Of a DNA stretch of 64,000 nt, positions 39,728 through 56,629 are shown piece by piece. Positions within the stretch are counted from its first letter, which is position 1; every line of letters starts with the position of its first letter. Both the position numbers and the translations under genes were made by a program. The stretch is taken from NCBI GenBank assembly GCA_964628025.1, contig CAZVLL010000006.1, positions 946 to 64,945 of the forward strand. The letters run 5' to 3'. The DNA comes from an uncultured Syntrophaceae bacterium. Its GTDB lineage: Bacteria; Desulfobacterota; Syntrophia; Syntrophales; UBA2192. Below the pieces are notes generated by a model. That model worked only from the letters and a program-made list of their open reading frames with translations, was not told the origin of the DNA and did not search any database.

Positions 39728-40597
39728 TGCGAGTCCCCTGCTGCGGAGTAGGGGAAGGGAACTGACCAGCAGTTTATTCAGACCGGTCTGCCTGGGGGGA
39801 AACCCATAGGCAAGACCCATCAGTTGTGTAAAATAGAGTACCGGCAGGTCGTAGAGAATGCCCTGCGCTTTTTCGATGGCCTTCTGCCGGGAGTCCAGGT
39901 TGACCTGGCACATCGGGCAGGCAACCACGATCGCGTCGGCGCCGGCCCCGCGGGCGGACTTCAGCACCTGCCCGCCCAGGTCGATGACGATGTCCGTCTG
40001 GGATGCGGCAAAAGCCCCCCCGCAGCACTCGGCCTTGTGGGACCATGGGACCGTATCGGCACCCAGCGCATGCAGGAGGCTATCCATGGAGGTCGGCTGC
40101 TCGGGATCGTCGAAGCAGACAATGGCACGGGGCCTTGTGAGGAGGCAACCGTAGTAAGCGGCGAGTTTCAATCCTTTCAGGGGTCTTAAGACTGGTTCGG
40201 CGAGCCGCTGCAAGCCCGTCCATTCCACAAGGGCCTGCATGAGGTGAGACACGACAGGGAGGTTCGAGAGCGGCGCCTCGACGACCATTTCCATCCTCTC
40301 CCGCACTTCCGTCGAATGTTTCAATGCATGGGCGACGCCCTTCATGCGATTGAAACAGCCTGCACAGGGGGTGGTTACCCGGTCGAGGTTCATGCGGTTG
40401 ACGGAGGCGAGATTGCGTGCGCTCAAGCCCAGGGTCAGCTCGCGGTCGAGGCTGTGGGCCGCCGTAGCACCGCAGCAGTTCCAGTCCTCGACCTCCAGCA
40501 GGCGGATTCCGAGACGCCTGCAGACGAGCTCCGCGGAACGACCGTATTCTCGGGCGATGCCATGGAGGGAGCATCCGGGGTAGTAGGCGATGTCCAT
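39725..40597 (-). CDS. hdrB: HdrB-like protein with two CCG domains (distal copy)
   Basis: YYPGCSLHG...EDWNCCGA and AAYYGCLLTRP...AECCGGAF are two CCG-domain signatures. I prefer ATG 40597 (MDIAYYPGC). Confidence 0.8.
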   Translation of the reverse strand: MDIAYYPGCSLHGIAREYGRSAELVCRRLGIRLLEVEDWNCCGATAAHSLDRELTLGLSARNLASVNRMNLDRVTTPCAGCFNRMKGVAHALKHSTEVRERMEMVVEAPLSNLPVVSHLMQALVEWTGLQRLAEPVLRPLKGLKLAAYYGCLLTRPRAIVCFDDPEQPTSMDSLLHALGADTVPWSHKAECCGGAFAASQTDIVIDLGGQVLKSARGAGADAIVVACPMCQVNLDSRQKAIEKAQGILYDLPVLYFTQLMGLAYGFPPRQTGLNKLLVSSLPLLRSRGLA

Positions 40598-40602
40598 CCC
40601 GT

Positions 40603-41184
40603 TCAATCCTTCTTGTGAATCCATTCACCATGGAAAAGGCGTCTTACCGTTTCCAGGCCTTTGACCCCTGACGAAAAGGGGTTCAGTTTTCCCTTGAGGA
40701 ACATCTTCAGGCCGAGTTCGGCGTCGTTTGTGTACCGGCCCGTTGCCGCGTTGAACCGGATCATGAGGCCCATCTCCGAGATGCGCCCTCTTTCTCGGAT
40801 CTGCTCGAGCATGAGGTTGTGAAAGAGCCCAACGGCGGGACGGGTGGCCGGGATTCCCTTCCGATGGGCCTTCTCCCGGAGATGGTCCAGGATCTGCGGG
40901 ATATCGATGCCCGAAGGGCAGCGGTCGAGGCAAAGATGGCAGGAAAGGCAGATCCAGAGTGCGTCCATTTTCATCAGGGTCTCTTCCGCACCCAGCTTCA
41001 CGAGCTGAACGATTTTCCGCGGGGTGTAGTCGAAGACATGTCCGTTGGAACAGCCCCCGGAGCACTTCCCGCACTCGAGGCAGGTATCGAGGTCGATGCC
41101 GAAGAGATCCTTCAGCTCCCTTTTCAGGGCACTGTCGGTCTTTTCAAGCCGTATCGGTGTGTAGAAATCCGGGTTCATGCTCAT
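40603..41184 (-). CDS. hdrC: HdrC-like 2x[4Fe-4S] ferredoxin-domain protein (distal copy)
   Basis: CLECGKCSGGC and CLSCHLCLDRCP cluster motifs. Size 193 aa. Confidence 0.8.
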   Translation of the reverse strand: MSMNPDFYTPIRLEKTDSALKRELKDLFGIDLDTCLECGKCSGGCSNGHVFDYTPRKIVQLVKLGAEETLMKMDALWICLSCHLCLDRCPSGIDIPQILDHLREKAHRKGIPATRPAVGLFHNLMLEQIRERGRISEMGLMIRFNAATGRYTNDAELGLKMFLKGKLNPFSSGVKGLETVRRLFHGEWIHKKD

Positions 41185-41187
41185 CCT

Positions 41188-42222
41188 TCAGGGACTCTGG
41201 CTGAACAGCGCAATGACGCCTGCGGCCGCCGCCGCGCCCTCGTTCCGCGCACCGGCCGTTTCAACGGCAAAGCCGCATCCGCCGGCGAAGAAGACCCGTT
41301 CCGCGCACCGGACCGGCTCAAAGGGATCCTGTTCGATAAAGCCGTACTCGTCGGTGCGGCAGCCGAAGAGTCCGGCGAGAATACCCGTCTCACGGCGCGG
41401 CACAAGGGCCGAGGCCAGGACCACCACGTCGACGGCCACCTCGATCGGGATCCCCATCAGGGTGTCTTCGGCCCTGACGATCAGCCTGCCGTCTTCGGGC
41501 AGGACCTTGGCCGGTCGCCCCCGGACATAACGAACGTGCTTTTCCTCGATGACGTGCCGGACAAACTCCTCGTAGTGCCTGCCGGAAGCCCGGTAGTCCA
41601 TGTAGAAAACATAAACCCCGGCATCGGGGAAAAGGTCCTTGATGAGTCCCGCCTGCTTGGCCGTGTACATACAGCAGATCTTCGAGCAGTAAGGGTTTCC
41701 CTTCGATCGATCGCGGGACCCGACGCACTGGATGAAGGCCACACTGCCGGGCTTGTCCCCGACTCCGAGCGCCCATTGTTTCAGACGTTTTTCAAATTCC
41801 AGGGAATTCACAACGCCGGGATAGATCCCGTGGCCGTATTCCCCGTAGACCGAGGCATCCATCAGTTCAAAACCGGTGGCCACGATGACGGCCTCGACGT
41901 CCAGCTCGCTTTCGCTGCCGTCGTGCAGGCTTTTCAGCGAGACACGGAAACCCCTTTCCTGTCGCAGGCTCGATGTGACAACGGTCTGCGTTCGGATCGA
42001 AGCCTGTTGCGACCGGACGAGGAGGGACTTTCGCTGCTCGATCAGCTCCCCGGGATTTTCCCATTTCGGGAAACTGCTGTGCAGGTCCCGCAGTGTGCCC
42101 CCGAGTTCGGGCTCTTTTTCTACCAGCACGACGCCAAACCCGGCCTGCGCGACCCGCAGCGCGGCTTCCATTCCTGCCGGGCCCCCTCCGATCACGAGGG
42201 CTGTTTTCTTTGTTTCCTGCAT
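41188..42222 (-). CDS. hdrA: short HdrA-like flavoprotein (344 aa, no ferredoxin domains)
   Basis: FAD fold ALVIGGGPAGMEAAL...EKEPELGGT. HdrA-type Cys cluster motif CVGSRDRSKGNPYCSKICCMY. Confidence 0.8.
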   Translation of the reverse strand: MQETKKTALVIGGGPAGMEAALRVAQAGFGVVLVEKEPELGGTLRDLHSSFPKWENPGELIEQRKSLLVRSQQASIRTQTVVTSSLRQERGFRVSLKSLHDGSESELDVEAVIVATGFELMDASVYGEYGHGIYPGVVNSLEFEKRLKQWALGVGDKPGSVAFIQCVGSRDRSKGNPYCSKICCMYTAKQAGLIKDLFPDAGVYVFYMDYRASGRHYEEFVRHVIEEKHVRYVRGRPAKVLPEDGRLIVRAEDTLMGIPIEVAVDVVVLASALVPRRETGILAGLFGCRTDEYGFIEQDPFEPVRCAERVFFAGGCGFAVETAGARNEGAAAAAGVIALFSQSP

Positions 42223-42237
42223 GGAGCAGATTCCTTT

Positions 42238-43170
42238 CTAGAGGCCCAGCTTTTTCAGAACTCCGGCCAGTGAAACCGTGTTGGCCTCGAATCCCAGCTT
42301 TTCCAGCGGCACACCGATGGCAAGGGCGATGAGCTGGGAAAGGTCAATCACGGGGATACTGAAATTCCCGCCGTACCGCTTGGCGAGATGGGGCTGTTCG
42401 CGGTCGAGCGCCACATTGCATCCCGGGCATACGGTCGTGATCAGTTCGACCCCTCCCTCCCGGGCGCTGGAGAGCTTTTTGAAGAGATGGGGCTGGACCG
42501 TTTCCTCTTTGTGGGTAAAACCCCGTCCCACCGAGTAGCCGCAGCACAACTGACGTTCTTGGTAAAATACCGGCGTGCCTCCTAGGATCTCCACGATTTC
42601 CTCATGAAACGTGGGGTAGCCGCCGTCGTCGAAGATCCCGTATTGCTTGGCCAGGTAGTGACAGCCATAGTGCACACCCACCTTCAGCCCGGCAAGGGGT
42701 CGCACCACCTTTTTGCCGATCTGTTCCCGCAGGCGGTACCACATTTCCTGGACGTGGTAGATTTGCGTTTTGCCCTCATACCGGTGTCCCCAGCGCGCAA
42801 CCAGGTCGTTGGCCATTTTCAGGTAGTCCGGGTTGTGCATCATGATGTGGGACAATTCGCTGAGGTATCCGTAGCACCCGTTGCAGAAGGTGTAGGTGTC
42901 CAGATCCTTCTTTTCGATGATGGAGAGGTTTCGGGCCGTGATGGCCAGAGAGACCTCCGGCTTGTGGGCCGAGCAGGTGAGAAGATATCCGGAGCAGCAG
43001 GTCTGGTCGGGATCCATCAGGGCGCGTATGCCGAGGCTCCCGAGGGTTTCCTTCACGGCGTTTTCCGTTCCGGGATATTCGAGACTGCCGGTGCAGCTCC
43101 GGAAAAGGAAAACGGCGTCGGGGATCGTGGGGATTTTCTCCTCCGGGCGGATGACCCGCTGCTTACGCAC
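42238..43170 (-). CDS. hdrB: HdrB-like protein with two CCG domains (proximal copy)
   Basis: FRSCTGSLEY...DQTCCSG and GVHYGCHYLAK...RQLCCGYS. Confidence 0.8.
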   Translation of the reverse strand: MRKQRVIRPEEKIPTIPDAVFLFRSCTGSLEYPGTENAVKETLGSLGIRALMDPDQTCCSGYLLTCSAHKPEVSLAITARNLSIIEKKDLDTYTFCNGCYGYLSELSHIMMHNPDYLKMANDLVARWGHRYEGKTQIYHVQEMWYRLREQIGKKVVRPLAGLKVGVHYGCHYLAKQYGIFDDGGYPTFHEEIVEILGGTPVFYQERQLCCGYSVGRGFTHKEETVQPHLFKKLSSAREGGVELITTVCPGCNVALDREQPHLAKRYGGNFSIPVIDLSQLIALAIGVPLEKLGFEANTVSLAGVLKKLGL

Positions 43171-43780
43171 CGATGATCCTCCCTTCCAGGTAAGAGAGTG
43201 CCAGCGGCTGGTCCTCTTCCTCGTGGATTCCTTCGAGAAATTCGGTCGTTCCGGTCAGATCAAAGAGGGTTCGGTACTCCTCCCGGGCCTTCTCCGAGAT
43301 CTCCGGCCAGGGGGTGAGCCCGATTCTGGTGCGCAGGGCCATGATCCGATCCCTTCCTTTGGCTCCGCCCGGCGCAAAGGTGAGGCCGTCCTCTCGCGCC
43401 CGAAGCGCAAATCGCTTGAACGGGACAATGTATTTCAGGCCGTGACGGGATGCGACGGCCCGATAGCGAAGCTGCATCATCAGAAGAGGGAAATGAATGT
43501 CCATCGGGCACTGGGTGTAGCAGCCGGCGCACCAGAAGCATCGCCAGATTTCCTCGCTGGCAAGCCAGCGGGTCTGAGAGCCGCTCAGGATATCGTGGAT
43601 GATCTGACGGGGATTGTAGGAAGGGGAAAGGCTCGCGACGGGGCAGGTACCGACGCATTTTCCGCACTGCAGGCAACTCTCAAGATTTTCAACGAGACGG
43701 TAGGCATCAACGACGCCGTAGAGATGATCGTCCCGGTCTCTGTATCGTTCTCTCGGCAACGCCGGCATCTCCTTTGGCAA
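43163..43780 (-). CDS. hdrC: HdrC-like 2x[4Fe-4S] protein (proximal copy)
   Basis: CLQCGKCVGTCP and CFWCAGCYTQCP. Overlaps the downstream hdrB start by 8 nt. Confidence 0.8.
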   Translation of the reverse strand: MPKEMPALPRERYRDRDDHLYGVVDAYRLVENLESCLQCGKCVGTCPVASLSPSYNPRQIIHDILSGSQTRWLASEEIWRCFWCAGCYTQCPMDIHFPLLMMQLRYRAVASRHGLKYIVPFKRFALRAREDGLTFAPGGAKGRDRIMALRTRIGLTPWPEISEKAREEYRTLFDLTGTTEFLEGIHEEEDQPLALSYLEGRIIGA

Positions 43781-43845: not shown

Positions 43846-45174
43846 TCAGGGTTTTTCCCTGACGCGGGCCGCAATCTGGCGCACGTCGTCCATGACCTTC
43901 GGCAGGTTCATGGTATGCAGGATCCGGTTTCGCATGACGATCTTTCCGTTGATGACCGAATCCCGCACGTCGCTGCCCCGGCAGGCATAGACGATCTGGG
44001 AGTACAGACTGTACAGTGGCGTAAGGTGCGGCTTTCTCATGTCCAAAACGATGATGTCGGCACATTTCCCGGGCTCGATGGACCCGATGAGATCTTGAAT
44101 TCCCAGCGCACGGGCGCCACCGATCGTGGCGATCGTAAGCGCCGTTGCGGCATCCATGGCGGTCGGATCCATGGTAGAGACCTTGTGGATCTTCGCCATC
44201 GTATCGAGCTCGAGCAGCATGTCCAGATCGTTGTTGCTCGCGCACCCGTCCGTCCCCAGACCGACGGGAATCCCGCGCTTCATGAGTTCCGGAATACGCG
44301 CGATGCCTGATGCGAGCTTCATGTTGCTCTCGGGGCAGTGGCAGACGGACGTGCCGGTTGCCGCAAGGATGTCCATCTCGCTCTCGTCGAGCCACACGCA
44401 GTGCACGGCTGCCGTTTTGCCGCCGAGAATGCCGATCCTGTCGAGATAGTGAACCGGCCGAAGCCCGTAGCGTGAAACAATGATGTCCACCTCCTCCTTC
44501 GTCTCGGCGAGGTGCATCATGAAGGGTACGTCCGCTTCCCCGGCAATTCGCTTCACCGTCTGCAGGGTTTCCGTTGCGCAGGTATAGGCGGAGTGGCAGA
44601 AGAGCGACGGCGTGACCATCGGGCTGAGGGGCTTCCATTTCGCGATGAATTTCTCTGCCGCCGACGCCTTGTTCCGGAGTTCGTCCGCATCGGGGGGAGA
44701 GAAATCGATGAACCCCTGGCCTGCCACGATGCGTACCCCGGCGTCGACGGCGGCCTGCACAACGTTGCTTTCATAAAAGTAGCTGTCACAACAGGTCGTT
44801 GTCCCTGAGAGAATCATCTCGGCCATCCCGAGGAGGGCGCCCCGGTAGATCATGTCGCGGTTGACGTGCTTCGCCTCGGCGGGGAACATGTGATCGTGAA
44901 GCCACTCCATCAGCGGCAGGTCGTCGGCAAGCCCGCGAAAGCACGTCATCGGCAGATGGGTGTGCGTGTTCACCAGGCCCGGCATGACGACGCAGCCTGT
45001 GGCGTCGATGGTTTCAGTTGTTCGTATCGGGGGGGCATCGGCCCTGTTCGAAACGAAACGGATCCTGCCTGCGGAGATGCCGATGACGGAGTCCTCGATG
45101 ACGTCCATACGGTCGGAAAGGGTGAGTGCCGTTCCCCCTGTGATGAGAATGTCTATCGTTTCTGCCGGGTTCAT
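43846..45174 (-). CDS. mtaD: amidohydrolase, MTA/SAH-deaminase (MtaD)-like, copy 1
   Basis: PGLVNTHTHLPMTCFRGLADDLPLMEWL, HLAETKEE, AVHCVWL, LGTDGCASNNDLDM: the metal-ligand pattern of the TRZ/ATZ-MtaD subgroup. Confidence 0.75.
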   Translation of the reverse strand: MNPAETIDILITGGTALTLSDRMDVIEDSVIGISAGRIRFVSNRADAPPIRTTETIDATGCVVMPGLVNTHTHLPMTCFRGLADDLPLMEWLHDHMFPAEAKHVNRDMIYRGALLGMAEMILSGTTTCCDSYFYESNVVQAAVDAGVRIVAGQGFIDFSPPDADELRNKASAAEKFIAKWKPLSPMVTPSLFCHSAYTCATETLQTVKRIAGEADVPFMMHLAETKEEVDIIVSRYGLRPVHYLDRIGILGGKTAAVHCVWLDESEMDILAATGTSVCHCPESNMKLASGIARIPELMKRGIPVGLGTDGCASNNDLDMLLELDTMAKIHKVSTMDPTAMDAATALTIATIGGARALGIQDLIGSIEPGKCADIIVLDMRKPHLTPLYSLYSQIVYACRGSDVRDSVINGKIVMRNRILHTMNLPKVMDDVRQIAARVREKP

Positions 45175-45175
45175 G

Positions 45176-46510
45176 TCAAACTCCCTGCATCCCTAGACTG
45201 TCCCGGATCCGCCGGGCGATACGGTTGACGCGATCCATGACCTCCTCCTCGTCGACGGTGAGTAATTTTCTGTTTTTCATCACTACCCGACCGTTGATTA
45301 CGACGGAGTCCACGTCGGACCCGGAGGCGCAATAGACGAGGTGTGAATCTTCGTGGTAGAGGGGTGTCAGGTGGGGCCGGTTAAAATCGACGGTGATGAT
45401 GTCGGCCTTCATGCCCGGCCGCAGGACCCCGACTTTTCCTTCCAGCCCGAGGGCACGGGCGCCGTCGCGAGTCGCCATTTTCAGGACCGTCGCGGCACTC
45501 ATGACCGTGGGGTCCAGGCGGAAGGCCTTATGAAGCTTGGCCGCCGTGTCCATCTCCTGAAACATGTCCAGGTTGTTGTTGCTTGCGCACCCATCCGTGC
45601 CCAGGGCCACCGTCACTCCCGCCGCCAGCAGGTCCGGTATAGGTGCAACGCCCGAAGCCAGTTTCATGTTGCTCTCGGGGTTGTGAACGACCTTCACTCC
45701 CGCCCGGGCGAACATCTCGATCTCCTCGGTTTCAAGCCATACGCAGTGAAAGGCCACGAGGTTGTCCTCAAGCAGGCCGATGTCGCGGAGGTATTGCACA
45801 GGGCTACGCCCAAGCTTTTCGAGGAGGCCGTCCCTTTCCGATTTCGTCTCCAGGAGGTGCAGTGCCAGGGGGGCCCCGTAGCGGTCGGCCAGCGCCTTGG
45901 ATTTTTTCAGAAGATCCTCCGAGCACGTGTAGAGGGCGTGAGGCTCCACGGTGATCCGGACCAGCGGGTCTTCGGCCCATTTCTCCAGGAGCTCCTTCGT
46001 GACTGCGAGGCCTTCATCGGGCGTCTTGAAGCGGGGGGAAGGGAAGTCGAAAAGCACTTCCCCGAGAAGGCAGCGCATCCCGGCGCTTTTTGCGGCTTTG
46101 GCCATCTCCTCTTCGAAGATGTACATGTCGCAGAACGTGGTCGTTCCCGAGCGGATCATCTCGATGCAGGCCAGCAGGCTTCCCCAGTAAGCCAGTTCCG
46201 GGTCCACGTTTTTCGCTTCGGCGGGGAAAATATAGTTGTTGAGCCACTCCATGAGTTCCAGGTCATCGGCAATTCCCCGGAAGCAGGTCATGGCGGCATG
46301 GGTATGGGCATTGACAAGCCCGGGCATGATCACGTGGCTTGTTGCGGAAATCGTATCCCTGCCGCGGTAGCGTTTCGCAATGTCGGCCCGGGGACCCATG
46401 GCGACAATCGTGTCTTTATGAATAACCAGCGCGCCCGACGGGATCGTCGGATTCGTCTCGTCGAGTGTGACGATCGTACCGCCTTCAATGAGGATGTCGA
46501 CTTCCTGCAT
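45176..46510 (-). CDS. mtaD: amidohydrolase, MtaD-like, copy 2 (tandem paralogue)
   Basis: Same motifs (PGLVNAHTHAAMTCFRGIADDLELMEWL, LGTDGCASNNNLDM). Start moved to ATG 46510 (RBS GGGAGAG). The longer track ORF would run into the tRNA gene. Confidence 0.75.
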   Translation of the reverse strand: MQEVDILIEGGTIVTLDETNPTIPSGALVIHKDTIVAMGPRADIAKRYRGRDTISATSHVIMPGLVNAHTHAAMTCFRGIADDLELMEWLNNYIFPAEAKNVDPELAYWGSLLACIEMIRSGTTTFCDMYIFEEEMAKAAKSAGMRCLLGEVLFDFPSPRFKTPDEGLAVTKELLEKWAEDPLVRITVEPHALYTCSEDLLKKSKALADRYGAPLALHLLETKSERDGLLEKLGRSPVQYLRDIGLLEDNLVAFHCVWLETEEIEMFARAGVKVVHNPESNMKLASGVAPIPDLLAAGVTVALGTDGCASNNNLDMFQEMDTAAKLHKAFRLDPTVMSAATVLKMATRDGARALGLEGKVGVLRPGMKADIITVDFNRPHLTPLYHEDSHLVYCASGSDVDSVVINGRVVMKNRKLLTVDEEEVMDRVNRIARRIRDSLGMQGV

Positions 46511-46578
46511 ACATTCTCTCCCGAGTAACTTGACAGCCTTCTGCAAAGATACTATACATGCCGAGGTTTGCCGCAAAA

Positions 46579-46666
46579 GCCTGGGTGGCGGAACTGGTAG
46601 ACGCAAGGGACTTAAAATCCCTCGGTACTTAGTGCTGTGCGGGTTCGATTCCCGCCCCAGGCACCA
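46579..46666 (+). tRNA. tRNA-Leu (anticodon UAA), class II with long variable arm, CCA encoded
   Basis: Acceptor GCCTGGG/CCCAGGC. D-arm GUGGCGGAACUGGUAGACGC as in bacterial tRNA-Leu. Anticodon stem AGGGA/TCCCT with loop CTTAAAA. T-arm GCGGG-TTCGATT-CCCGC. Discriminator A plus CCA. Confidence 0.9.
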
Positions 46667-47343: not shown

Positions 47344-47610
47344 TGATGGTCTCCTTGTTTTGATGCATCGGAAAGCGAAATATCCGAGTCGGTACGGCGT
47401 CAGTTTTATATTTTTCGCGCGCCTTTCACAAGAAAAATCCCATTACGTTTCTCATCCTTTTTCTGACGGCAAAGTAAGGGATATCGAAGGGTCAATTCAT
47501 CGTATCCCCGATTCATTCATGGGCTGAATCATAAGAGAATGGCAGTACGGCAAGGGAGTTCATCGGGTCAACAGGCACCCGGACAAATGCAATGTGGAGG
47601 TGAGGTGTTC

Positions 47611-47931
47611 ATGGAACCTTTGCGTATCCTTCCCGAGGAGGCACATGAGAAGGTTGCAGCGGGAAAAGCCCTTCTGGTCTGCGCCTACCCGGACGACGAG
47701 ACGTTCCGGAAGATGATGTTGCAGGGAGCGGTGTCCCTGAAGGAATTTGAATCAAGGATCGCCGGTCTCTCGAAGAGCCAGGAGATTATTTTCTACTGCG
47801 CTTGAACGAAGGAGCACACCTCTGCCGGTCTGGCAGAGAAATACCTGGTCATGGGATATGAGAATGTCAGGGCGCTCGGCGGTGGCGTCGAAGGATGGAA
47901 AAGGGCAGGGTATACCATTGTCGGCGCGTAA
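47611..47931 (+). CDS. rhodanese-like sulfurtransferase, probable selenoprotein (in-frame UGA at 47803-47805 read as Sec65)
   Basis: RBS GGAGGTGAGG. The frame continues through the TGA into ...TKEHTSAGLAEKYLVMGYENVRALGGGVEGWKRAGYTIVGA*, which completes the rhodanese fold. A SECIS-like hairpin lies 14 nt downstream of the UGA. Confidence 0.65.
47820..47838 (+). promoter_or_regulatory. bacterial SECIS-like hairpin
   Basis: CTCTGCC-GGTCT-GGCAGAG is a perfect 7-bp stem. The apical GGUCU recalls the E. coli fdhF SECIS core (...GCAGGUCUGC..., from memory). The loop starts 21 nt after the UGA. Confidence 0.6.
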
Positions 47932-48013: not shown

Positions 48014-48094
48014 ATGGATCTAGTCTTTTATGTTCTGTTTGCGGCTATCCTGATCGGCGCGATCGTCTGGATCGTTAAAGGGAAGCGCAAATAA
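48014..48094 (+). CDS. 26-aa single-TM small protein candidate, absent from the ORF track
   Basis: RBS TAAGGAGGAT ends 3 nt upstream of the ATG (GGAGG core about 5 nt). MDLVFYVLFAAILIGAIVWIVKGKRK is one hydrophobic helix plus a basic tail. Confidence 0.4.
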   Translation: MDLVFYVLFAAILIGAIVWIVKGKRK

Positions 48095-48133: not shown

Positions 48134-51100
48134 TCAACGAATACGGTCCAGCTCCTGCCTGACGCTGATGGCGAGCCGTTCCTGGAGGTAGGGTTTCCGG
48201 ACGTAGGCGCCGGCGCCCAGGGTCTGGGCTTCCACCACCCGCTCGGTTTGCGCGTAGCCGCTCACGACGATGGCCTTCTGCCCCGGATGGATCTTCACGA
48301 TCTCCCGGTACGTGTCCAGCCCGTCCATCCCCGGTTCCATCAGCATGTCCAGGACCACCAGGTCCACTCTGTTCGTCCGGAGATACTCCACGGCCGCCTC
48401 GCCGCTCGCCACACCCGTCGCACTGTAGTTCAGACCAGTCAGGATCTTCACCGCCAGATCCCGCTGACCCCCCACGTCGTCCACCACCAGGACCGTCTCC
48501 CTTCTCCCCCGGTACCGCGACACCCGGAAGACCGGCTTTTCGAGGATTGCTTCCTTCGTCACCGGAAAATACAGGGTAAACGTCGTTCCCTTGCCCTTCT
48601 CGCTTGCCACTTCGATGTACCCGTCATGATCGTTCACCGTCCCCCAGACCACCGAAAGCCCCAGGCCCGTCCCGCTGTAACGACCCATCGCCTTCTTCGT
48701 GTAAAAAGGCTCGAAGATCCGCTTCATATCCTCCGGGGAGATCCCTTCCCCCGTGTCCGATACCGACAGAACCACATACTCTCCCTTCCGGACCTTGTCG
48801 TACCCGGAAACGGAACTCTCCAAAACCTGTTTCCGCGTTCGGATCGTCACCGTTCCCCCGATGGGCATCGCCTCGCACGCGTTGGACACCAGGTTCATGA
48901 TCGTCTTGCCGATGTGAACGGGGGAGGCCAGGATGTTCCCAAGCTCCTCCTCCAGATCGGTCTGCACCTCCACGTGGGGATGATACGAAACCAGGGTCAT
49001 ATACTCGGGAGAGGCCAGGACCTCGCAAACCGACAGGTTCAGGTTCATGGCCTTGTGGACGTGGACCCCCCGCCGGGCCATCACCAGCAGATCCTGCACA
49101 ATCGCAGCCGCCTTCTCACCTCCTTCCATGATGCGAAGCACGTCGGACCGCCACGGGCTCGACGCGTCAATGTGATCCAGCAAAAGCTCCGAATACCCCA
49201 CCAGGATGCCCAGGTGATTGTTCAGCTCGTGGGCCACGCCGCCCGCCAGGACCCCCAGGGCCTCCATCTTCTCCGAACGAATCAGCCGCTCCTTCAACTC
49301 CCGACGATCCTCCTCCGCACGCTTGTGGGAGGTGATGTCCCGGAAATATCCCCGCACTTTCGTGACCCTGCCGTCGACCTTCACCGCCCGTCCCATGGCA
49401 TGCGTCACAAGACGCCTTCCCTTGGCGCTGGTGAAGCGAAGTTCGAGATCGAAGGGCTCCCCGGTTTCTGTGCAGCGCTGCAGCGCCGCGATCAACGTTG
49501 ACCGATCCGGCTCATCGTAGAAGAGGGTGGCTTTAGGCAGGTCATAGTTTTCATGCTCGGGAATGTCGTGAATCCGGTATGTCTCCCGGGTCCAGTATAC
49601 TTTCTTTGTCCCTACGTCGAGTTCCCAGCCGCCGACCTTGCCCAACTCGCCTATTTCATCGAGTAATATCTCACTTCGGCGCAAGGCATCCTCCGCCTTT
49701 TTGCGTTCGGTGATGTCCACATTGTTTCCAACGTAGCCGCTGATCACTCCTGATTCATCCCGTATCGGCGAGGCAACGCCGTAAACCCAGGTTGCTATTC
49801 CCTCACGGTTTTGAAATCGGTATTCGAGACCCCAGGTTCCTTCCGATTCCACCATTCTGTACCAGGAGTTGCGAATCAATTCCCGATCCTCCGGATGGAT
49901 CCCTTCCACCCAGCCTTCGCCCATCGCTTCTTCGGTCGTGAGTCCCGCCATCCTGCGCCAACGCTTGTTTACATAGCTGCAGTGACCGATATTATCGGTC
50001 AGATAAATCCCGACGGGTGATGACTCGGCGAGGGCGCGGAATTTGTTTTCGTTTTCCCGGAGCGCATTCTGAATTTTTCTTTCCTCGGTGATGTCATGGG
50101 CCTGGGTAAGCAACATTTCCCTGTCGCCGATCCTGACGATCTCGGCGGACATGATCATCTCCAATTCCCTGCCGTCTCTCGACTTGAGAATCATAACTAC
50201 ATCGCGAAGACATCTCTTTTCTTTGAGCGTTTCGATAAGTTGTGCCCGCTGTTCCGGTTCGTTCCATACTCCCAGTTCGACTGCCGTTTTGCCCATTACC
50301 TCTTGACGGGAAAATCCCGTCGTGTTGAGCCACTGGTCGTTGACATTGACGAGGCGGCCGTTCGCCATATCTGTAATGGCCATCGGTGACGGGCTTGAGT
50401 GAAATGCCGTCCTGAACAGATCTTCGCTTGCCCGCAAATCCTTCTCTGCCTGCTTGCGTTTGGTCCTGTCGTGGATAATCTGGATTGTCAGCACCCGACC
50501 GTCCGGCCCTGGAAAGCAGTTTGAACTCAGTTCTACCGGAAACGTTGTTCCGTCCTTCCGCCGGAGTGTCAGTTCTCCTCTCCATTTTCCTGTCTGTACT
50601 CGCTCTTCAAGGGCTTTGCCCAGCCGATCATCCTGAACCACAATCCCGGCACGTCCGGCTTTGCATATCTCTTCTTCCATCATTCCGAGCATCTGCTGGG
50701 CTGCAACATTTGCAGACAAAACTTCGCCTGTGGGCTCGGTGACCAGGATAGCATCTAAACTGTTGTTGAAGATGGAACGGAAACGATTTTCGCTTGCACG
50801 CAAACCCTTCTCGGCCTGCTTCGCATCCGTGATATCGCGGCCGAAGACAGCCACGCGCACGACGGTTCCATCGGGTCCCTTCACGGGATAGATTCGCTGC
50901 TCGATGTGGCGGCCATCCCTGTCGTCCTCGAATTCGACAGGCTTGCCTGTCTTGAGGACCTGCTCCAGCATGACCCGGCGCCGGACCGCCAGGTCGGCAG
51001 GCAGGAAATCGAAGGCATTTTGCCCGACAACATCGGTTTTGCTGATCTTCAGGCGTTTGACGAATTCACTGTTGTGACACAGGATGATGCCGTCGCGGTC

Positions 51101-51208
51101 CATGAGGAAGAGTACGTCCATGGCAGCATCCAGGAAGGCCTGTAAAGCCTCCTCCTTTAGCCTCAGTTTTTCGATTAGCTCTTGCCTGGTCTTGTTTTCA
51201 TTGTGCAT
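48134..51208 (-). CDS. hybrid sensor histidine kinase: five PAS domains + HisKA + HATPase_c + receiver
   Basis: Five PAS units, each ending in a D(I/V)T(D/E)xK-type linker. H-box GGVAHELNNHLG, then N/G boxes (NACEAM, DTGEGI, GTGLGLS). C-terminal REC (VLVVDD...VVLDMLMPGMDG...KPY). Confidence 0.9.
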   Translation of the reverse strand: MHNENKTRQELIEKLRLKEEALQAFLDAAMDVLFLMDRDGIILCHNSEFVKRLKISKTDVVGQNAFDFLPADLAVRRRVMLEQVLKTGKPVEFEDDRDGRHIEQRIYPVKGPDGTVVRVAVFGRDITDAKQAEKGLRASENRFRSIFNNSLDAILVTEPTGEVLSANVAAQQMLGMMEEEICKAGRAGIVVQDDRLGKALEERVQTGKWRGELTLRRKDGTTFPVELSSNCFPGPDGRVLTIQIIHDRTKRKQAEKDLRASEDLFRTAFHSSPSPMAITDMANGRLVNVNDQWLNTTGFSRQEVMGKTAVELGVWNEPEQRAQLIETLKEKRCLRDVVMILKSRDGRELEMIMSAEIVRIGDREMLLTQAHDITEERKIQNALRENENKFRALAESSPVGIYLTDNIGHCSYVNKRWRRMAGLTTEEAMGEGWVEGIHPEDRELIRNSWYRMVESEGTWGLEYRFQNREGIATWVYGVASPIRDESGVISGYVGNNVDITERKKAEDALRRSEILLDEIGELGKVGGWELDVGTKKVYWTRETYRIHDIPEHENYDLPKATLFYDEPDRSTLIAALQRCTETGEPFDLELRFTSAKGRRLVTHAMGRAVKVDGRVTKVRGYFRDITSHKRAEEDRRELKERLIRSEKMEALGVLAGGVAHELNNHLGILVGYSELLLDHIDASSPWRSDVLRIMEGGEKAAAIVQDLLVMARRGVHVHKAMNLNLSVCEVLASPEYMTLVSYHPHVEVQTDLEEELGNILASPVHIGKTIMNLVSNACEAMPIGGTVTIRTRKQVLESSVSGYDKVRKGEYVVLSVSDTGEGISPEDMKRIFEPFYTKKAMGRYSGTGLGLSVVWGTVNDHDGYIEVASEKGKGTTFTLYFPVTKEAILEKPVFRVSRYRGRRETVLVVDDVGGQRDLAVKILTGLNYSATGVASGEAAVEYLRTNRVDLVVLDMLMEPGMDGLDTYREIVKIHPGQKAIVVSGYAQTERVVEAQTLGAGAYVRKPYLQERLAISVRQELDRIR

Positions 51209-51420
51209 ATCAGATCCTCAAAAAAACCCCACTGTCGCGGCGGCAGCGGGGTTTCGGAAAACGGTCCATGGTGTACCCTCAGGCGGGGTGGAAGGGTTTC
51301 GTAACAACAATGAAACGCTATTGTGCTTCTCGTAGCAGCATTGCCGCAGGAAATCCACCAGAAAGTGAGAAAGCGGCTGCACCTCTAGACTATTCGCTCA
51401 GGTCGGGTCTTATGGAAAAA

Positions 51421-51437
51421 TGGCATGGTCTGTGCTT
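51421..51437 (+). promoter_or_regulatory. candidate sigma54 (-24/-12) promoter upstream of the REC-HK gene
   Basis: TGGCATGGTCTGTGCTT has GG and GC at the correct 12-nt register of TGGCAC-N5-TTGCW. It lies 54-70 nt upstream of ATG 51491. Confidence 0.4.
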
Positions 51438-51490
51438 CTGAGAGTGTTTTGTGACGCTTCCGATTTTGGTCGAAAGGTCACAGGGGGACT

Positions 51491-53092
51491 ATGCAAAGGA
51501 ACCTTCCCGTTCGTAATCTGCTGATGGTGGACGATGAGCCGCAGATTCTCAACAGCCTCATGCGGGAGCTGAGGCAGGAAGGGTACCGGATCTACACGGC
51601 AAATGACGGTCCGGCAGGGCTTGATATCGTCCGGAATCATGATATCGGTGTCGTCCTGTCGGATCAGATGATGCCGCAGATGGGCGGCATCGCCTTTCTC
51701 GAGGAAGTGGGGAGGCTGAAGCCCGACACGATTCGGATCATGCTCACGGCACACGGGTCTTTCGAATCCGCTTCGATGGCCATCAATCGTTCCAATGTGT
51801 TCGGCTACCTGACGAAGCCCTGGCACTCGGAAGATCTGAAGACATTTCTGCGGAGGGCCTTCGAGCACCACGATCTGATCATGGAGAATCGCAGGCTCCA
51901 GCGCCTGACCGAAGATCAGAACGAGCAACTTCAGGTGAACATGAACATGCGGCAATCCATATTTAATGCCATTGCGGAGCCCCTTCTGCTGGTTGATGAG
52001 TATCTTGACATCCTCGTGTCGAACGAGGCGGCATCGGTCATGCTCTACAACGAGCGGAGTTTCGATCCCGGTTGCACACCGCTCTTGCAGGAGTTGACGG
52101 AGCGGTACGGCGAGACGATTGCACGCGCAATCCAGCATTCCGTGAGGGATTCATCAACAGAACGATTCCGCACCGAAGTCAACAAGGTAGACTTCATGGT
52201 AGAGGAGATTTCCATACACCCCGTTCCCGAAAAGAGCAGGGCGAACACAAAGGCCGTCTTACGAATTCGAGACATCACGGAAGACAAGAGAACGGAGCGA
52301 AAACAGTACCAGCAGGAGAAGCTAGAGTCGCTCGGACTGCTCATGACAGGGCTGATTCATGAGATTAACAATCCCAACAACTTCATCATATTCAATATCC
52401 CTACGATCCGGGAATACACAGAACGCCTCTTGAGCGTCGCAAAGAATCAGGCAGGGCTGAGTCCGGAGCCTGATTTTTGTGGGATGCCCTACGAGGAATT
52501 CAAGGAAGATCTGCTTCGCCTCATTGAAACGCTCGAGCGTGGTGCAAAGCGAATCGATGAGACACTGTTGAAGCTGCGAAGCGTGACCCATGAGAGAGGC
52601 ATCCAGAGACAGTACATCGCGAAGCCGGGCGAGATTATTGAGAAGGCCCTCTCCGTTTGCCAGAGCCAAATCAAGAAACTGATCAATACCCTCGACATCC
52701 AGATCGCCGGAAACCTCCTTCCGATGTCCTGCGATCCCGACGCCCTGGAAGAGATCCTGATCAATATCCTCATCAATGCAGCTCAGGCAGGCGATAAGGA
52801 AAATTCTATCGTCCGCCTCCGGGCCTTCGCCGGGAAGAACTGGAAGAATCGCCTTGTCGTCGAAATTGAAGACAACGGATGCGGGATGGACAAAAAGACG
52901 AAGGAGCGGATTTTCGAACCCTTTTTTACGACGAGGAAATACGGCGCCGGCCTCGGAATGGGACTCTACCGATCAAAGATGCTCATCGATGATCTTGGCG
53001 GGACGATCTCGGTGACGAGCAGGCCGAAGGAGGGTACGACATTCCGGGTCGTTGTCCCGGATATGCAGGGCACTTGCGAGGCATGTTGCTGA
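51491..53092 (+). CDS. response-regulator receiver fused to PAS-like region and histidine kinase core
   Basis: REC (LMVDDEPQIL...VVLSDQMMPQMGG...YLTKPW). H-box GLIHEINNPNNF. HATPase (NILINAAQA, DNGCGMD, GAGLGMGL). Confidence 0.88.
   Translation: MQRNLPVRNLLMVDDEPQILNSLMRELRQEGYRIYTANDGPAGLDIVRNHDIGVVLSDQMMPQMGGIAFLEEVGRLKPDTIRIMLTAHGSFESASMAINRSNVFGYLTKPWHSEDLKTFLRRAFEHHDLIMENRRLQRLTEDQNEQLQVNMNMRQSIFNAIAEPLLLVDEYLDILVSNEAASVMLYNERSFDPGCTPLLQELTERYGETIARAIQHSVRDSSTERFRTEVNKVDFMVEEISIHPVPEKSRANTKAVLRIRDITEDKRTERKQYQQEKLESLGLLMTGLIHEINNPNNFIIFNIPTIREYTERLLSVAKNQAGLSPEPDFCGMPYEEFKEDLLRLIETLERGAKRIDETLLKLRSVTHERGIQRQYIAKPGEIIEKALSVCQSQIKKLINTLDIQIAGNLLPMSCDPDALEEILINILINAAQAGDKENSIVRLRAFAGKNWKNRLVVEIEDNGCGMDKKTKERIFEPFFTTRKYGAGLGMGLYRSKMLIDDLGGTISVTSRPKEGTTFRVVVPDMQGTCEACC
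51506..51930 (+). repeat. 425-nt direct repeat, copy 1 (REC module + linker)
   Basis: Aligns without gaps to 53203-53627. 9 of ~142 encoded residues differ. 51731-51840 is 110/110 nt identical to 53428-53537. Confidence 0.9.
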
Positions 53093-53187
53093 TGCCTGTC
53101 GGAACAGGGAAGGGAATCTAACGAGTAACCGGTCAGGATGACGATACCGGCCGTTTTGGTCGTTGTGTCGGCATCGCAGGAGGTCAC

Positions 53188-54294
53188 ATGCGGAGCCACG
53201 CACCCGTTCACAATCTGCTGATGGTGGACGATGAGCCGCAGATTCTCAACAGTCTCAAGCGGGAGCTGAAGCAGGAAGGGTACCGGATCTACACGGCAAA
53301 TGACGGTCCGGCAGGGCTCGATATCGTCCGGAATCACGATATCGATGTGGTCCTGTCGGATCAGATGATGCCGCAGATGGACGGCATCGAGTTCCTGGGA
53401 GAGGTCGGCCGGCTGAAGCCCGACGCGATTCGGATCATGCTCACGGCACACGGGTCTTTCGAATCCGCTTCGATGGCCATCAATCGTTCCAATGTGTTCG
53501 GCTACCTGACGAAGCCCTGGCACTCGGAAGATCTGAAAACATTCCTGCGGAGGGCCTTCGAGCACCATGATCTCATCATGGAAAATCGAAAGCTCCAGCG
53601 CCTGACCGAGGATCAGAACGAGCAACTCAGACAGTTCAACAGCGAGCTGGAAAGCATCATCCGCGAGAGAACGGTCCAGCTCACTGAGGCCGTGCGAGAA
53701 GGAATCTCCATGATGGCCCTCGCGGCGGACGCGAAGGAGGGCGGCACGGGGATGCATGTTCAGCGTATGTTCAGCCTGACGCTCCGCATCGGACTGAATC
53801 TGGGACTGGGATTCGGCGAGGCGGAGCAGATCGCCTTCGCGAGCATGATGCACGATGTGGGAAAACTCATGATTCCCGATGCAATCCTGAACGGAACGAA
53901 CCCTCCGTTGGACGACGAGCGCGAGCTGTTGAAACAGCACACCGTGCTCGGTGTCCGGATGCTGGGGAGCAAGCCGTTCTACCGTATTGCCAGGGACATT
54001 GCGCTGAGTCATCACGAACGATGGGACGGCGGGGGGTACCCCTACGGACTGAAGCAGGAAGCCATTCCGCTGGCCGCCCGGATCGTGGCCGTTGCCGATC
54101 TGTTCGACAGCTTGATGCATTCCCGATCATCGGGACGGAAACCGACCATCGACGAAGCGCGCGCCGCCATGCGGGCACAGTCCGGAGGTGCCCTTGACCC
54201 GGCGATCTTGGAGGCGTTTTGGGAACTGAACTGGGATTTCGACGACGAACGCGCACCGGAAAACGTCCGTTACGATAGACGCAACAAATCCTGA
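53188..54294 (+). CDS. response regulator with HD-GYP phosphodiesterase domain (RpfG-like)
   Basis: The REC is nearly identical to the previous gene. HD-GYP motifs HDVGKLMIP and HHERWDGGGYPYGL. Confidence 0.88.
   Translation: MRSHAPVHNLLMVDDEPQILNSLKRELKQEGYRIYTANDGPAGLDIVRNHDIDVVLSDQMMPQMDGIEFLGEVGRLKPDAIRIMLTAHGSFESASMAINRSNVFGYLTKPWHSEDLKTFLRRAFEHHDLIMENRKLQRLTEDQNEQLRQFNSELESIIRERTVQLTEAVREGISMMALAADAKEGGTGMHVQRMFSLTLRIGLNLGLGFGEAEQIAFASMMHDVGKLMIPDAILNGTNPPLDDERELLKQHTVLGVRMLGSKPFYRIARDIALSHHERWDGGGYPYGLKQEAIPLAARIVAVADLFDSLMHSRSSGRKPTIDEARAAMRAQSGGALDPAILEAFWELNWDFDDERAPENVRYDRRNKS
53203..53627 (+). repeat. 425-nt direct repeat, copy 2
   Basis: See copy 1. Identity is >90% by eye, including synonymous positions. 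Confidence 0.9.
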
Positions 54295-54319
54295 AACTGC
54301 CAGGGAGCGTGAAGACCTG

Positions 54320-55720
54320 ATGTCCCCCGATCAAAAACACAAAATTCTTCTTGTCGATGACGAGGAATCGATCACGAAAGCGCTGCAGCGCCTGTTCCGT
54401 CGGGAGAACCACGACATTCTCACCGCATCGGGCGGTGAAGAAGGTCTGCGCATTCTGCGCGAATCGTCAGAACCCTTTTCTCTGATCATATCCGATCAGA
54501 GAATGCCGGGCATGAACGGGTCCGAATTCCTCGAACAGGCGAGGGCCATCGTCCCCAGGTCCATCCGGATCCTTCTTACGGGGTACTCGGATATGACCGC
54601 CATCGTCGATGCCGTCAACCGGGGACAGATCCACCGATACATGACGAAGCCCTGGAATGACGACGATATTCTCTTCGCGGTCCGGCAGTCCCTGGAGCAT
54701 TACGATCTCGTGAGCGAGAACGTTCGTCTCCTGGATTTGACCCGGAAGCAAAATGACGAACTGACCGATCTGAACCGGACCCTGGAGACGAAGGTCGAGG
54801 AGAGGTCCCGGGAGATCCTCATCAAGAATCAGGAGTTGTCCCGGCTGAACAAAGATCTGGAGATGAACCTCTACAATGCCGTGAAGGCCTTTTCGTCGCT
54901 TGTGGACAGGTTCAGCCCGGCACTGGCAGGTCACTGCCGCCGCGTCGCCCAGCTTTCCCGGGAGATCGGGGGGCTCCTGGATCTGCCCGAAAACGAACTG
55001 ATCCAGGTCGAGATCGCAGCGCACCTCCACGATTTCGGCAAACTCTCTTTTCCTCCCAAGCTCATCGAGTACCGGGAAGAGACGTGGACGCTGGAAGAGA
55101 AACGCCTGTACCGGAGTCATCCGCAACTAGGCCAGGAGACGGTGCACTTCATCAACCGGCTCGATCAGGTCGGTCTGATCATCCGCAGCCACCACGAGCG
55201 CTACGATGGCCACGGGTTTCCCGATCAGCTGGCCGATGAGGAGATCCCCATCGGAGCGCGGATCATCACGGTAGTTGACGCGTTCGACAAGATGGCGAAT
55301 CTGCACGTCGACATCGGCCAGACAGTGAAAGGTCTGCGTCACACGGAGGGCCGGATCCATGAGGATGAACTGTTCTACAAGGGCGCGGTGTCGCATCTCA
55401 GAAAGGAAAGCCTTCTGTCCTACGATCCCGATGTCGTGAAAGTATTCCTCTCGCTTTTGCAATCCCGCGCGACAGCGGACGGTCAAAAAACGGCCGGCAA
55501 AAGCCATGTTCACTACTTTCAGAAAGCGTCGACGCGTCCCGAGCAGAAGATGTCCATGCAGGAACTGTCGCACGGCATGACCATTTCGAGGGCGCTTTAC
55601 ACGAAGAGCGGGCGCTTTCTGCTGCCGGCGCATACGGTGCTGACCGAAAACTACATTGAAAAAATCCTTTCCCTGCATGAATCGGACTCCGTCAGTACGA
55701 TATACGTATTCTTGAAATGA
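54320..55720 (+). CDS. response regulator with HD-GYP-type domain (GFP variant) and ~100-aa C-terminal extension
   Basis: REC (ILLVDDEES...LIISDQRMPGMNG...YMTKPW). HDFGKLSFP and HHERYDGHGFPDQL. Confidence 0.85.
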   Translation: MSPDQKHKILLVDDEESITKALQRLFRRENHDILTASGGEEGLRILRESSEPFSLIISDQRMPGMNGSEFLEQARAIVPRSIRILLTGYSDMTAIVDAVNRGQIHRYMTKPWNDDDILFAVRQSLEHYDLVSENVRLLDLTRKQNDELTDLNRTLETKVEERSREILIKNQELSRLNKDLEMNLYNAVKAFSSLVDRFSPALAGHCRRVAQLSREIGGLLDLPENELIQVEIAAHLHDFGKLSFPPKLIEYREETWTLEEKRLYRSHPQLGQETVHFINRLDQVGLIIRSHHERYDGHGFPDQLADEEIPIGARIITVVDAFDKMANLHVDIGQTVKGLRHTEGRIHEDELFYKGAVSHLRKESLLSYDPDVVKVFLSLLQSRATADGQKTAGKSHVHYFQKASTRPEQKMSMQELSHGMTISRALYTKSGRFLLPAHTVLTENYIEKILSLHESDSVSTIYVFLK

Positions 55721-55741
55721 GAGGACATTCAGAGGACACGC

Positions 55742-56629
55742 ATGGATACCAAGACAAGAGAGACCCTGGGAGATGCCGAGCACCAGCTGAAGCGTCTCAG
55801 TACGATACGAGAACTGCCGACCATGCCCGTCGTCCTGATGCGGCTCAATCGAATGCTGCAGGATGATGTGGCCTCGATCGAAAAAATCGGCCATCTGATT
55901 GAGACGGATCAGGCACTGTCCTCGAAGATCCTCAAGCTCGTCAATTCCGCTTTCTTCGGGTTCCCGTCCCGGGTAAGCAACATTTCCCATGCGCTCATGA
56001 TCCTCGGGTTCAACACCGTGCGGAATGCAGCCATTTCCGTGTCCCTCATCGATGCCATGCGTATCAAGAAAGGCGTCGAGGATTTCGACATTAAGGAATT
56101 CCTGCGGCATGCCATCGCCGTGGCCGTTGCCGGGAAGTACCTGGCCAGAAAGGCCCGCATGCGCGAGCCCGATGATGCCTTCACGGCAGGGCTGCTACAC
56201 GACATCGGCAAGCTGGTCATGATCCAGTTCCTCCCTGATCTTTTCGATATCGTCTGGAAGAGGGTTCGCGAAGACAAGATCACCTTCTTCGATGCAGAAA
56301 AAATGGAACTCCCGCTGACGCATGCCGCCATCGGGGCTCATCTCTCCCATCTCTGGCAGTTTCCCGCGGGGCTGGTCTCGTCCATCGCCTATCACCATGA
56401 ACCGCCCCAGCCGTCCGAGTATTCTACGTCGATCATGACGGTTTGCCTGGCCAACAGGGCCGTCAATCATATCCGAGCCGGAATCCCGATGGATGCCGGG
56501 ATTGCCCTGAAATTCCCCGGGCAGGAAGCCTTTGTCCGGGACAAGGTGGCCACGGTCTCCCAATGGTTTGGCGATTTGGAAGAGGAGATCGAAGAGGCAT
56601 GCAGCTTTTTCCTGGAAGGGAGGGACTGA
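55742..56629 (+). CDS. HDOD domain protein
   Basis: LPTMPVVLMRLNRMLQDD...ALSSKILKLVNSAFFGFPSRVSNISHALMILGFNTVRN and HDIGKLVM are typical of HDOD. Confidence 0.85.
   Translation: MDTKTRETLGDAEHQLKRLSTIRELPTMPVVLMRLNRMLQDDVASIEKIGHLIETDQALSSKILKLVNSAFFGFPSRVSNISHALMILGFNTVRNAAISVSLIDAMRIKKGVEDFDIKEFLRHAIAVAVAGKYLARKARMREPDDAFTAGLLHDIGKLVMIQFLPDLFDIVWKRVREDKITFFDAEKMELPLTHAAIGAHLSHLWQFPAGLVSSIAYHHEPPQPSEYSTSIMTVCLANRAVNHIRAGIPMDAGIALKFPGQEAFVRDKVATVSQWFGDLEEEIEEACSFFLEGRD

Follow-up and report, generated by a model that had tools for sequence, protein, structure and literature searches.

The question raised by this locus is whether the in-frame TGA at positions 47803-47805 ends a short gene or encodes selenocysteine (Sec) in the middle of a longer one. 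Comparisons with related genes make it very likely that the segment 47611-47931 of the plus strand is one gene, that its product is a single-domain rhodanese selenoprotein of 106 residues, and that Sec is encoded at the UGA. Ordinary gene callers halt at UGA and therefore miss such a gene. In what follows, "the window" denotes the whole stretch of DNA that was analysed, which is 64 kb long.

Reading frame and domain structure

The frame that opens with the ATG at 47611 encodes MEPLRI...SQEIIFYCA, meets the TGA at 47803-47805, continues as TKEHTSAGLAEKYLVMGYENVRALGGGVEGWKRAGYTIVGA and reaches its true terminator, a TAA, at 47929-47931. The complete coding sequence (47611-47931) thus consists of 64 + 1 + 41 = 106 codons, including that of Sec65, followed by the TAA. 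A Shine-Dalgarno-like GGAGG can be read from the sequence at 47596-47600, 10 nt 5' of the start codon, and the N-terminus MEPLRI fits the family consensus MxEPxRIxPEE. An ATG further upstream, at 47539, was considered as the start and rejected: no signal peptide is gained by using it, and the family consensus starts at MxEPxRI.

The first-pass annotation of this DNA had the called open reading frame (ORF) stop at the TGA right after ...IIFYCA and the same frame stay open for 41 more codons up to the TAA, and both statements agree with the sequence and its translation. It had also taken the continuation to be the C-terminal half of a single-domain rhodanese. This is borne out by the Pfam Rhodanese profile PF00581, which matches the read-through product with 37.9 bits (the cut-off is 22.2) over residues 8-98, and thus runs across the TGA. 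The 41 codons 3' of the Sec codon (47806-47928) complete the active-site loop and provide the C-terminal rhodanese half with the sequence GGVEGWKRAGY; the motif GGVxxWxxAGY is conserved in all relatives. That the gene had been missed by ORF calling is evident from the public record for the exact sequence (P0001), a "hypothetical protein" of 64 aa ending at the TGA.

The codon TGC at 47797-47799 encodes Cys63, the canonical catalytic cysteine of rhodanese, which opens the active-site loop and was assigned from the family column and from the alignment with the loop cysteines of the solved structures 6mxv and 3o3w. The UGA lies two residues past this cysteine, as had been proposed, and the active-site motif is Cys63-Ala64-Sec65 within the loop sequence C-A-U-T-K-E-H-T.

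The UGA codon in related genes

The relatives found in a first protein search have the ends ...IIFYCA, ...FYCS or, unexpectedly, ...IIFY. In the DNA of these relatives, an in-frame TGA is followed by the conserved C-terminal half. The ...IIFY group carries two TGA codons, arranged as Y-TGA-A-TGA-P. Scans of genome and metagenome collections with a family alignment added 160 loci to these first relatives, and the homologue set comprised 172 gene copies, equal to 155 distinct proteins that are 44-68% identical to the window protein. The relatives come from Syntrophales, other Thermodesulfobacteriota, Candidatus Brocadia, Nitrospirota, Synergistales, metagenomes and other sources.

The active-site triplet is CxU in 122 of the 172 copies, UxU in 48 (28%) and CxS in two, which are one locus fetched twice. 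The Sec column accordingly holds TGA in 170 copies and TAA or TAG in none. The column of Cys63 is invariably Cys or TGA in the family, the latter (Sec) being present in 48 of the 172 relatives. All 218 in-frame stops found across the 172 copies are TGA, although these genes have all three kinds of stop codon as their true terminators (84 TAA, 44 TAG and 44 TGA). Seven loci had been missed by the pattern match; the six that were read (L071, L082, L086, L166, L176 and L029) all have an in-frame CxU. Recurrence of an in-frame UGA on this scale, in 170 of 172 copies and in the missed loci read, is far beyond chance.

A profile search of protein databases found the following residues other than Sec and Trp in the Sec column: CxS in 21 proteins, CxC in seven and CxG in one, so that Ser is commoner than Cys as the non-Sec residue (21 versus 7 proteins). 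The CxC proteins include P0087, P0091 and P0075, the last with the sequence FYCACPAEAS, which matches the Y-C-x-C-P-x-E type that the first-pass annotation had named for related rhodaneses. In DNA, non-Sec codons were read as TGC in L177 (genuine, verified), TGT in L178 and TCC in L016. The expectation that homologues would have either Sec or Cys in the UGA column was thus confirmed, with TGA in 170 of 172 copies and Cys in the seven database proteins. Natural replacement by Cys and Ser, at a position within the catalytic loop of a cysteine enzyme, is the classical signature of a Sec site.

Meaning of the UGA codon

A UGA can be read through without Sec. The codon might mean Trp or Gly in these bacteria, or it might be decoded in a programmed manner by a near-cognate tRNA for Trp, Cys or Arg, the hairpin that follows the UGA serving only to stimulate the read-through. 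This possibility draws on two observations. One is that the profile search of protein databases returned many full-length relatives with Trp, 54 with CxW and 13 with WxW. These entries are mostly located on metagenome contigs of about 0.4-3 kb, however, and are interpreted as gene calls under an alternative code. The other is that the Sec machinery was not found within the 64-kb window: Pfam scans of 40 ORFs from it gave no SelA, SelB or SelD, and ARAGORN found no tRNA-Sec there, only a tRNA-Leu.

Against such a reading stands the normal use of UGA as a stop. TGA is the commonest ordinary stop in the window, where it ends 21 of 33 Pfam-supported genes, and it also ends 44 of the 172 family genes; the genetic code is therefore the standard one. 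Furthermore, the natural substitutes are Cys and Ser, and the motif is located within a catalytic cysteine loop. The hairpin has the leading GG and the 21-nt spacing of a SelB-type bacterial SECIS (bSECIS) model, and published catalogues list the family as a predicted selenoprotein. Decoding of the UGA by anything other than Sec is accordingly given only a slim chance, and Sec is the reading adopted below.

The window was also searched for further selenoprotein genes as pairs of ORFs that lie in the same frame and are split by a TGA. At 58% GC this produced 165 candidates, nearly all of them noise. An apparently split HdrA on the minus strand, with ORFs at 42238-43170 and 41188-42222 in the same frame, was rejected as a selenoprotein. 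The intervening stop is TAG, and the two ORFs are therefore separate genes.

The hairpin downstream of the UGA

A perfect hairpin beginning fourteen nucleotides past the UGA had been pointed out previously and is found at 47820-47838 of the plus strand. Its sequence is CTCTGCC-GGTCT-GGCAGAG: a 5' arm at 47820-47826, the loop GGUCU at 47827-47831 and a 3' arm at 47832-47838 form 7 bp, and the loop begins 21 nt past the UGA. Folded alone, the hairpin has an energy of -11.2 kcal/mol (z = -3.2), and one of 200 dinucleotide shuffles is as stable.

According to the published bSECIS model, the loop is 3-9 nt long with G in its positions 1 and 2, the stem has 4-16 bp, 16-37 nt separate the UGA from the loop, and the minimum free energy is -7.5 kcal/mol or lower (PMC13188914). 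The hairpin of the window agrees with every one of these criteria: the loop is 5 nt long and starts with GG, the stem is 7 bp, the spacing is 21 nt and the energy is -11.2 kcal/mol.

The SECIS of Escherichia coli fdhF is the experimental archetype of the bacterial element, and we take the GGUCU loop of the window hairpin to resemble it. In loop, stem, leading GG, spacing and folding energy the hairpin stays within the limits of the consensus bSECIS (bSECISearch) model, but it has no evident bulged U or extended lower stem. A search of the region around the hairpin against Rfam, at the gathering threshold and at E-values up to 10, gave no matching family, which is uninformative because Rfam holds only described, curated families.

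The conservation of the hairpin was analysed in an ungapped alignment (A2) of 149 distinct segments of 63 nt. All 149 sequences have it in the same columns, and for 91% of the hairpins the folding energy is -7.5 kcal/mol or lower. Paired cells make up 86.6% of the stem, compared with 21-50% after a shift of the 3' partner by 1-3 columns. Two-sided changes amount to 74 cells versus 37 in shuffled alignments, none of 500 shuffles reaching 74, and the covariation score is 0.222 versus 0.138 in shuffles. The loop is GGUC[A/G/U] in 122 of the 149 sequences.

Since the region is also coding, it has to be considered whether the hairpin is a by-product of the encoded peptide S-A-A-G-Q-A-A that has no function as RNA, so that the UGA would be decoded through another signal or through none. 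The stem is indeed partly set by the peptide, Ala-Ala-Gly-x-Ala-Ala in the family, and a residual hairpin still folds at the same place in the Cys and Ser forms L178 and L016. For these two reasons, the pairing of the stem by itself is weaker evidence than the constraints on the loop and on the wobble positions. An independent prediction with RNAalifold recovers only the four innermost pairs, and the lack of an Rfam match can be counted on the same side.

The synonymous sites behave differently from what a by-product would imply, being fixed in the Sec forms alone. Of the 131 Gly codons at the loop position, 128 (98%) are GGT, as opposed to 28-35% at three invariant control Gly codons, and the flanking hairpin codon is GCC in 138 of 155 cases, i.e. 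in 138 of its 144 Ala codons. Third-position entropy is 0.80 inside the hairpin codons and 1.5 elsewhere. This constraint on synonymous sites is the strongest evidence that the hairpin is maintained at the RNA level. In addition, the pair formed by two wobble positions (third-position columns 27 and 39) covaries: it is UA in 109 sequences, CG in 18, GC in four, UG in ten and AU in one, and is unpaired in five of 149. Finally, the GGUC loop is gone in all three non-Sec genes examined (L177, L178 and L016). A purely peptide-driven hairpin is likewise given only a slim chance. The earlier proposal of a candidate bSECIS at this place stands, the hairpin being within the published limits and under RNA-level constraint in the family.

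Another helix in the region, GCC-UGA-CC / GG-UCA-GGC, forms six of its eight pairs in the window. Across the alignment it is 82% paired versus 81.5% in shuffles, which amounts to conservation without covariation, and it was rejected.

Coding constraint beyond the UGA

The protein-coding character of the sequence does not change at the UGA. Mean entropies at codon positions 1, 2 and 3 are 0.84, 0.54 and 1.45 before the TGA and 0.64, 0.72 and 1.53 after it, the third-position value being close to 1.5 on both sides. The window gene and its counterpart in a strain variant (L001) differ at three sites, all of them synonymous; two of these changes fall in the Cys and Ala codons directly before the preserved TGA. 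Frameshifts and in-frame stops other than TGA were looked for in the 172 copies and in the missed loci read, and none was seen. The relatives are thus free of the varied disruptions that the first-pass annotation had named as the mark of a decaying gene: the 218 in-frame stops are all TGA, the frame is kept, and third-position variability is unchanged past the TGA.

That the locus is a decaying pseudogene, a rhodanese inactivated by a nonsense mutation whose downstream frame has stayed open fortuitously or because little time has passed since, might be suggested by the 64-aa "hypothetical protein" that gene callers give and by the lack of a conserved operon partner, but the occurrence of TGA in the same column across several phyla, in relatives that are distinct proteins at 44-68% identity and not assembly duplicates, together with the intact frames, the matching codon periodicity and the exclusively synonymous strain differences, excludes it for all practical purposes and leaves it with a negligible probability.

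Relation to known rhodanese families

The first-pass annotation referred to rhodanese-related sulfurtransferases as a reported selenoprotein family of deltaproteobacteria, which is correct (PMC1976440). The CxU rhodanese-like selenoprotein was first described by Zhang and Gladyshev in 2005 and is listed in a review of 2026 as "form 3, CxU", NF041203 (PMC13188914); a review of 2022 has it as "COG0607 form 2 (CxU)" (PMC9312934). With a rhodanese/COG0607-type domain and a CxU Sec motif, the window protein agrees with the published definition of these proteins. The proposed 106-aa Sec-containing sulfurtransferase is therefore supported as a family reading by the TGA column, the conserved frame and the hairpin, and its CxU form has already been catalogued.

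NF041203, named rhodanese_LYCAU and described as "rhodanese-related (seleno)protein", is the best NCBIfam match of the window protein. The two share the single rhodanese domain and the position of Sec two residues past the catalytic Cys (C-A-U); the motif is L-Y-C-A-U in NF041203 and F-Y-C-A-U in the window protein. Scored with Cys in place of Sec, the window protein obtains 61.5 bits, and with X 53.9 bits; neither value reaches the cut-off of 115, and the alignment covers only positions 52-122 of the 126 in the profile. NF041203 is also the top NCBIfam match of all 33 relatives sampled. Their best E-value is 1.2e-20, so that the sampled relatives are well short of a 115-bit match. Judging from these scores, the window gene looks like a member of a clade, F-Y-[C/U]-x-U, that is sister to the CxU rhodanese selenoproteins already catalogued and would lie outside the NF041203 equivalog. 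Automated annotation truncates the gene because the clade scores below the cut-off of that model (61 versus 115 bits).

The double-Sec form, UxU, was reported in 2007 by Zhang and Gladyshev from deltaproteobacterial symbionts of Olavius algarvensis (PMC1976440). That study counted eight selenoprotein genes of the rhodanese family, and its data contained no homologue with Cys (PMC1976440). The Olavius proteins belong to the same family, and 48 of the 172 relatives collected here likewise have TGA at both the catalytic and the +2 columns. The window gene differs from them in having one Sec only: it is of the CxU form, its codon at 47797-47799 being TGC.

GlpE and PspE are single-domain Cys rhodaneses that act as thiosulfate sulfurtransferases. 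These two proteins, as well as the solved rhodanese-like proteins 6mxv and BH2092 (3o3w, 3nhv), have the fold and the catalytic Cys position of the window protein. The family profile matches 6mxv_A with E = 1.4e-19, BH2092 with 2e-8 and GlpE (1gmx) with 6e-6, and the NCBIfam GlpE model matches the window protein with E = 8.5e-6. In contrast to these Cys rhodaneses, the window protein has Sec at +2 and LLVCAY in place of IDVR.

TsoB (NF045694), a rhodanese/DsbD fusion-like selenoprotein with a UxxxxU motif, likewise has Sec in the active-site loop of its rhodanese domain. It is, however, a fusion protein of 572 positions with another Sec spacing. The weak match of the window protein (E = 5.5e-4) amounts to 18 bits against a cut-off of 805, and membership in TsoB was rejected.

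Active site and proposed mechanism

By combining the sequence data with what is established about bacterial Sec decoding, it is possible to propose how the gene might be expressed. When a ribosome arrives at the UGA at 47803-47805, the hairpin at 47820-47838 would act as the bacterial SECIS element. Its loop would bind SelB carrying Sec-tRNA(Sec). Sec would then be inserted at the UGA, and translation would run on to the TAA at 47929-47931.

In the product, Cys63 and Sec65 could handle sulfane sulfur, or selenium, by way of a persulfide and of a selenenylsulfide formed within the loop. The rhodanese site would then represent a redox-active version, analogous to the CxxU and UxxC motifs. Such a redox or sulfane-carrying pair is suggested, tentatively and at somewhat less than even chances, by the alternation of Cys and Sec at position 63, by that of Sec, Ser and Cys at position 65, which resembles the CxxU/CxxS/CxxC motifs of oxidoreductases, and by the loop region, which exceeds that of the solved rhodanese 6mxv by two residues according to a gap in the alignment. 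An invariant LLVCAY occupies the place where the "IDVR" strand is usual in rhodaneses. It contains a third conserved cysteine, Cys24, which may take part in the chemistry.

The surroundings of the gene give no hint of a pathway from any conserved neighbour in 159 loci. When ORFs within 5 kb on each side were clustered, no partner was found in more than 21 of these loci. The most frequent neighbours, named by a look at their sequences alone, are aldo/keto-reductase-like, QueF-like and ArsC/LMW-phosphatase-like. Their recurrence reflects synteny within subclades, not a system.

Significance for the family

The CxU kind of rhodanese selenoprotein is already known. As it has been described since 2005, the gene in the window is an annotation miss rather than a discovery, and the biological novelty is small, both CxU and UxU rhodanese selenoproteins having been predicted in 2005-2007. 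The points of interest lie with the family and not with the locus. They are the use of Sec, which is near-obligate, the putative decoding of two UGA codons with one hairpin and the gap in the curated model.

Sec is used at the +2 position in about 98% of the clade, and Cys forms are rare. In the UxU members (28%), the loop of a single hairpin is 27 nt away from the first UGA codon and 21 nt from the second, the two being spaced by just 6 nt. If this hairpin does serve both of them, the rule for the spacing between UGA and SECIS is looser than in E. coli fdhF. The widest interpretation would be that F-Y-[C/U]-x-U is a large clade distinct from NF041203 and near-obligate in its use of Sec, in which one SECIS decodes two UGA codons in 28% of the members with a looser spacing than in fdhF, and whose proteins are selenenylsulfide or diselenide redox catalysts instead of plain sulfurtransferases. 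Taken as a whole, this interpretation is rather unlikely to be right, and it is put forward as a conjecture.

The consequence for annotation is that many relatives are recorded either as truncated proteins or with Trp in the place of Sec. If the cut-off of NF041203 were lowered, or a sister model added, a selenoprotein that is widespread among anaerobic bacteria of the sulfur cycle (for example Syntrophales, Nitrospirota and Brocadia) would be recovered. The data assembled here comprise about 150 distinct SECIS sequences, the alternation of Sec, Cys and Ser, and double-Sec forms on one hairpin. They may serve as a starting point for work on the function of the family and on the decoding of two UGA codons by one SECIS.

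Double-TGA members and the region of the Sec codon

The rhodanese family contains members with more than one putative selenocysteine. A pair of in-frame TGA codons with a single codon between them, giving the motif Y-U-x-U, is present in 48 of the 172 related gene copies, for example in the related loci L004 (5298-5306) and L009 (4760-4768). This UxU motif was already published in 2007 (PMC1976440). In the UxU copies a single hairpin is common to both TGA codons, with its loop 27 and 21 nt away from them. Neither a second hairpin nor an indel was found that would set the UxU form apart from the CxU form among the family copies and in A2, the ungapped alignment of 149 distinct segments covering the Sec codon and the hairpin. 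Two other loci carry a pair of same-strand paralogues of the rhodanese gene with about 1 kb between them, at ~10055 and ~11097 in L035 and at ~3055 and ~4097 in L141, and each pair consists of a CAU form and a UGU form.

In most family members the Sec codon and its neighbours (GCC-UGA-CC) form a perfect complement to the loop and the 3' arm of the SECIS hairpin (GG-UCA-GGC), and the two stretches can therefore be drawn as a competing helix. The helix joins columns 4-11 of A2 with columns 31-38, which correspond to window positions 47800-47807 and 47827-47834. It is 82% paired in A2 and represents the minimum free energy fold in L004, and six of its eight pairs form in the window. A covariation test of the helix in A2 detected none beyond conservation.

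N-terminus and third cysteine

Many relatives possess a signal-peptide-like N-terminal extension of about 35 residues, e.g. MQAKGKCTVVFALALMAGFLLMGAWAAAQQ, among them the database proteins P0004-P0012 and P0016 and the members at L004 and L009, with the extension at 5001-5110 and 4481-4580, respectively. The window protein and most other family members start directly at MxEPxRI. As both types of N-terminus occur, the family seems, from its sequences, to comprise exported as well as cytoplasmic members. A third cysteine, Cys24 (window 47680-47682, motif ALLVCAY), is invariant across the family, whereas classical rhodaneses have 'IDVR' in the corresponding strand.

Genomic surroundings

Just 3' of the rhodanese gene, on the same plus strand, lies a 26-codon ORF (48014-48094, MDLVFYVLFAAILIGAIVWIVKGKRK), with a strong ribosome-binding site, AAGGAGGA, ahead of its start. 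Its product looks like a single transmembrane helix. The strain variants L001 and L003 have this ORF too, annotated there as a gene of 45 aa. The rhodanese gene is adjoined by a signalling cluster (48134-56629), which comprises a minus-strand gene for a multi-PAS histidine kinase of 1024 aa and genes for one response-regulator/HATPase protein, two response-regulator/HD-GYP-type proteins and one HDOD protein.

Two consecutive heterodisulfide-reductase-like gene pairs, each consisting of a 4Fe-4S dicluster protein and a CCG-domain protein, occupy 39725-43780 on the minus strand and flank the gene of a 344-aa FAD/pyridine-nucleotide-disulfide oxidoreductase. A Sec-split HdrA was considered here and ruled out, because the intervening stop is TAG. 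Tandem amidohydrolase-family paralogues of 442 and ~444-476 aa are arranged head-to-tail at 43846-45174 and 45176-46606 (minus strand). In its longest version the second ORF extends into a tRNA-Leu(TAA) gene on the opposite strand (46579-46666, plus), and its true start is therefore probably internal.

Elsewhere in the window, a plus-strand gene (5369-7765) encodes a 798-aa protein in which multihaem cytochrome c-type motifs, with weak Cytochrom_c3_2, C554 and MtrC/MtrF-like matches, occur together with HEAT repeats and an extended TPR region. Two tandem cytidylate-kinase-like (PF13189) paralogues (37875-38708 and 38812-39651, plus) are located directly 3' of the genes for ATP synthase subunits b, alpha and gamma (34581-37820, plus); no beta subunit gene was present among the downstream ORFs that were scanned.

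Tryptophan at the Sec columns of public proteins

Tryptophan occupies the Sec columns (CxW, WxW) in 67 of the 96 best-scoring database proteins with a readable motif (within P0017-P0134). These relatives come mostly from short metagenome contigs. Judging from the protein entries, they are apparently gene calls made under a code in which TGA is read as Trp. If the calls did use that code, the family would be systematically mis-annotated in public protein sets.
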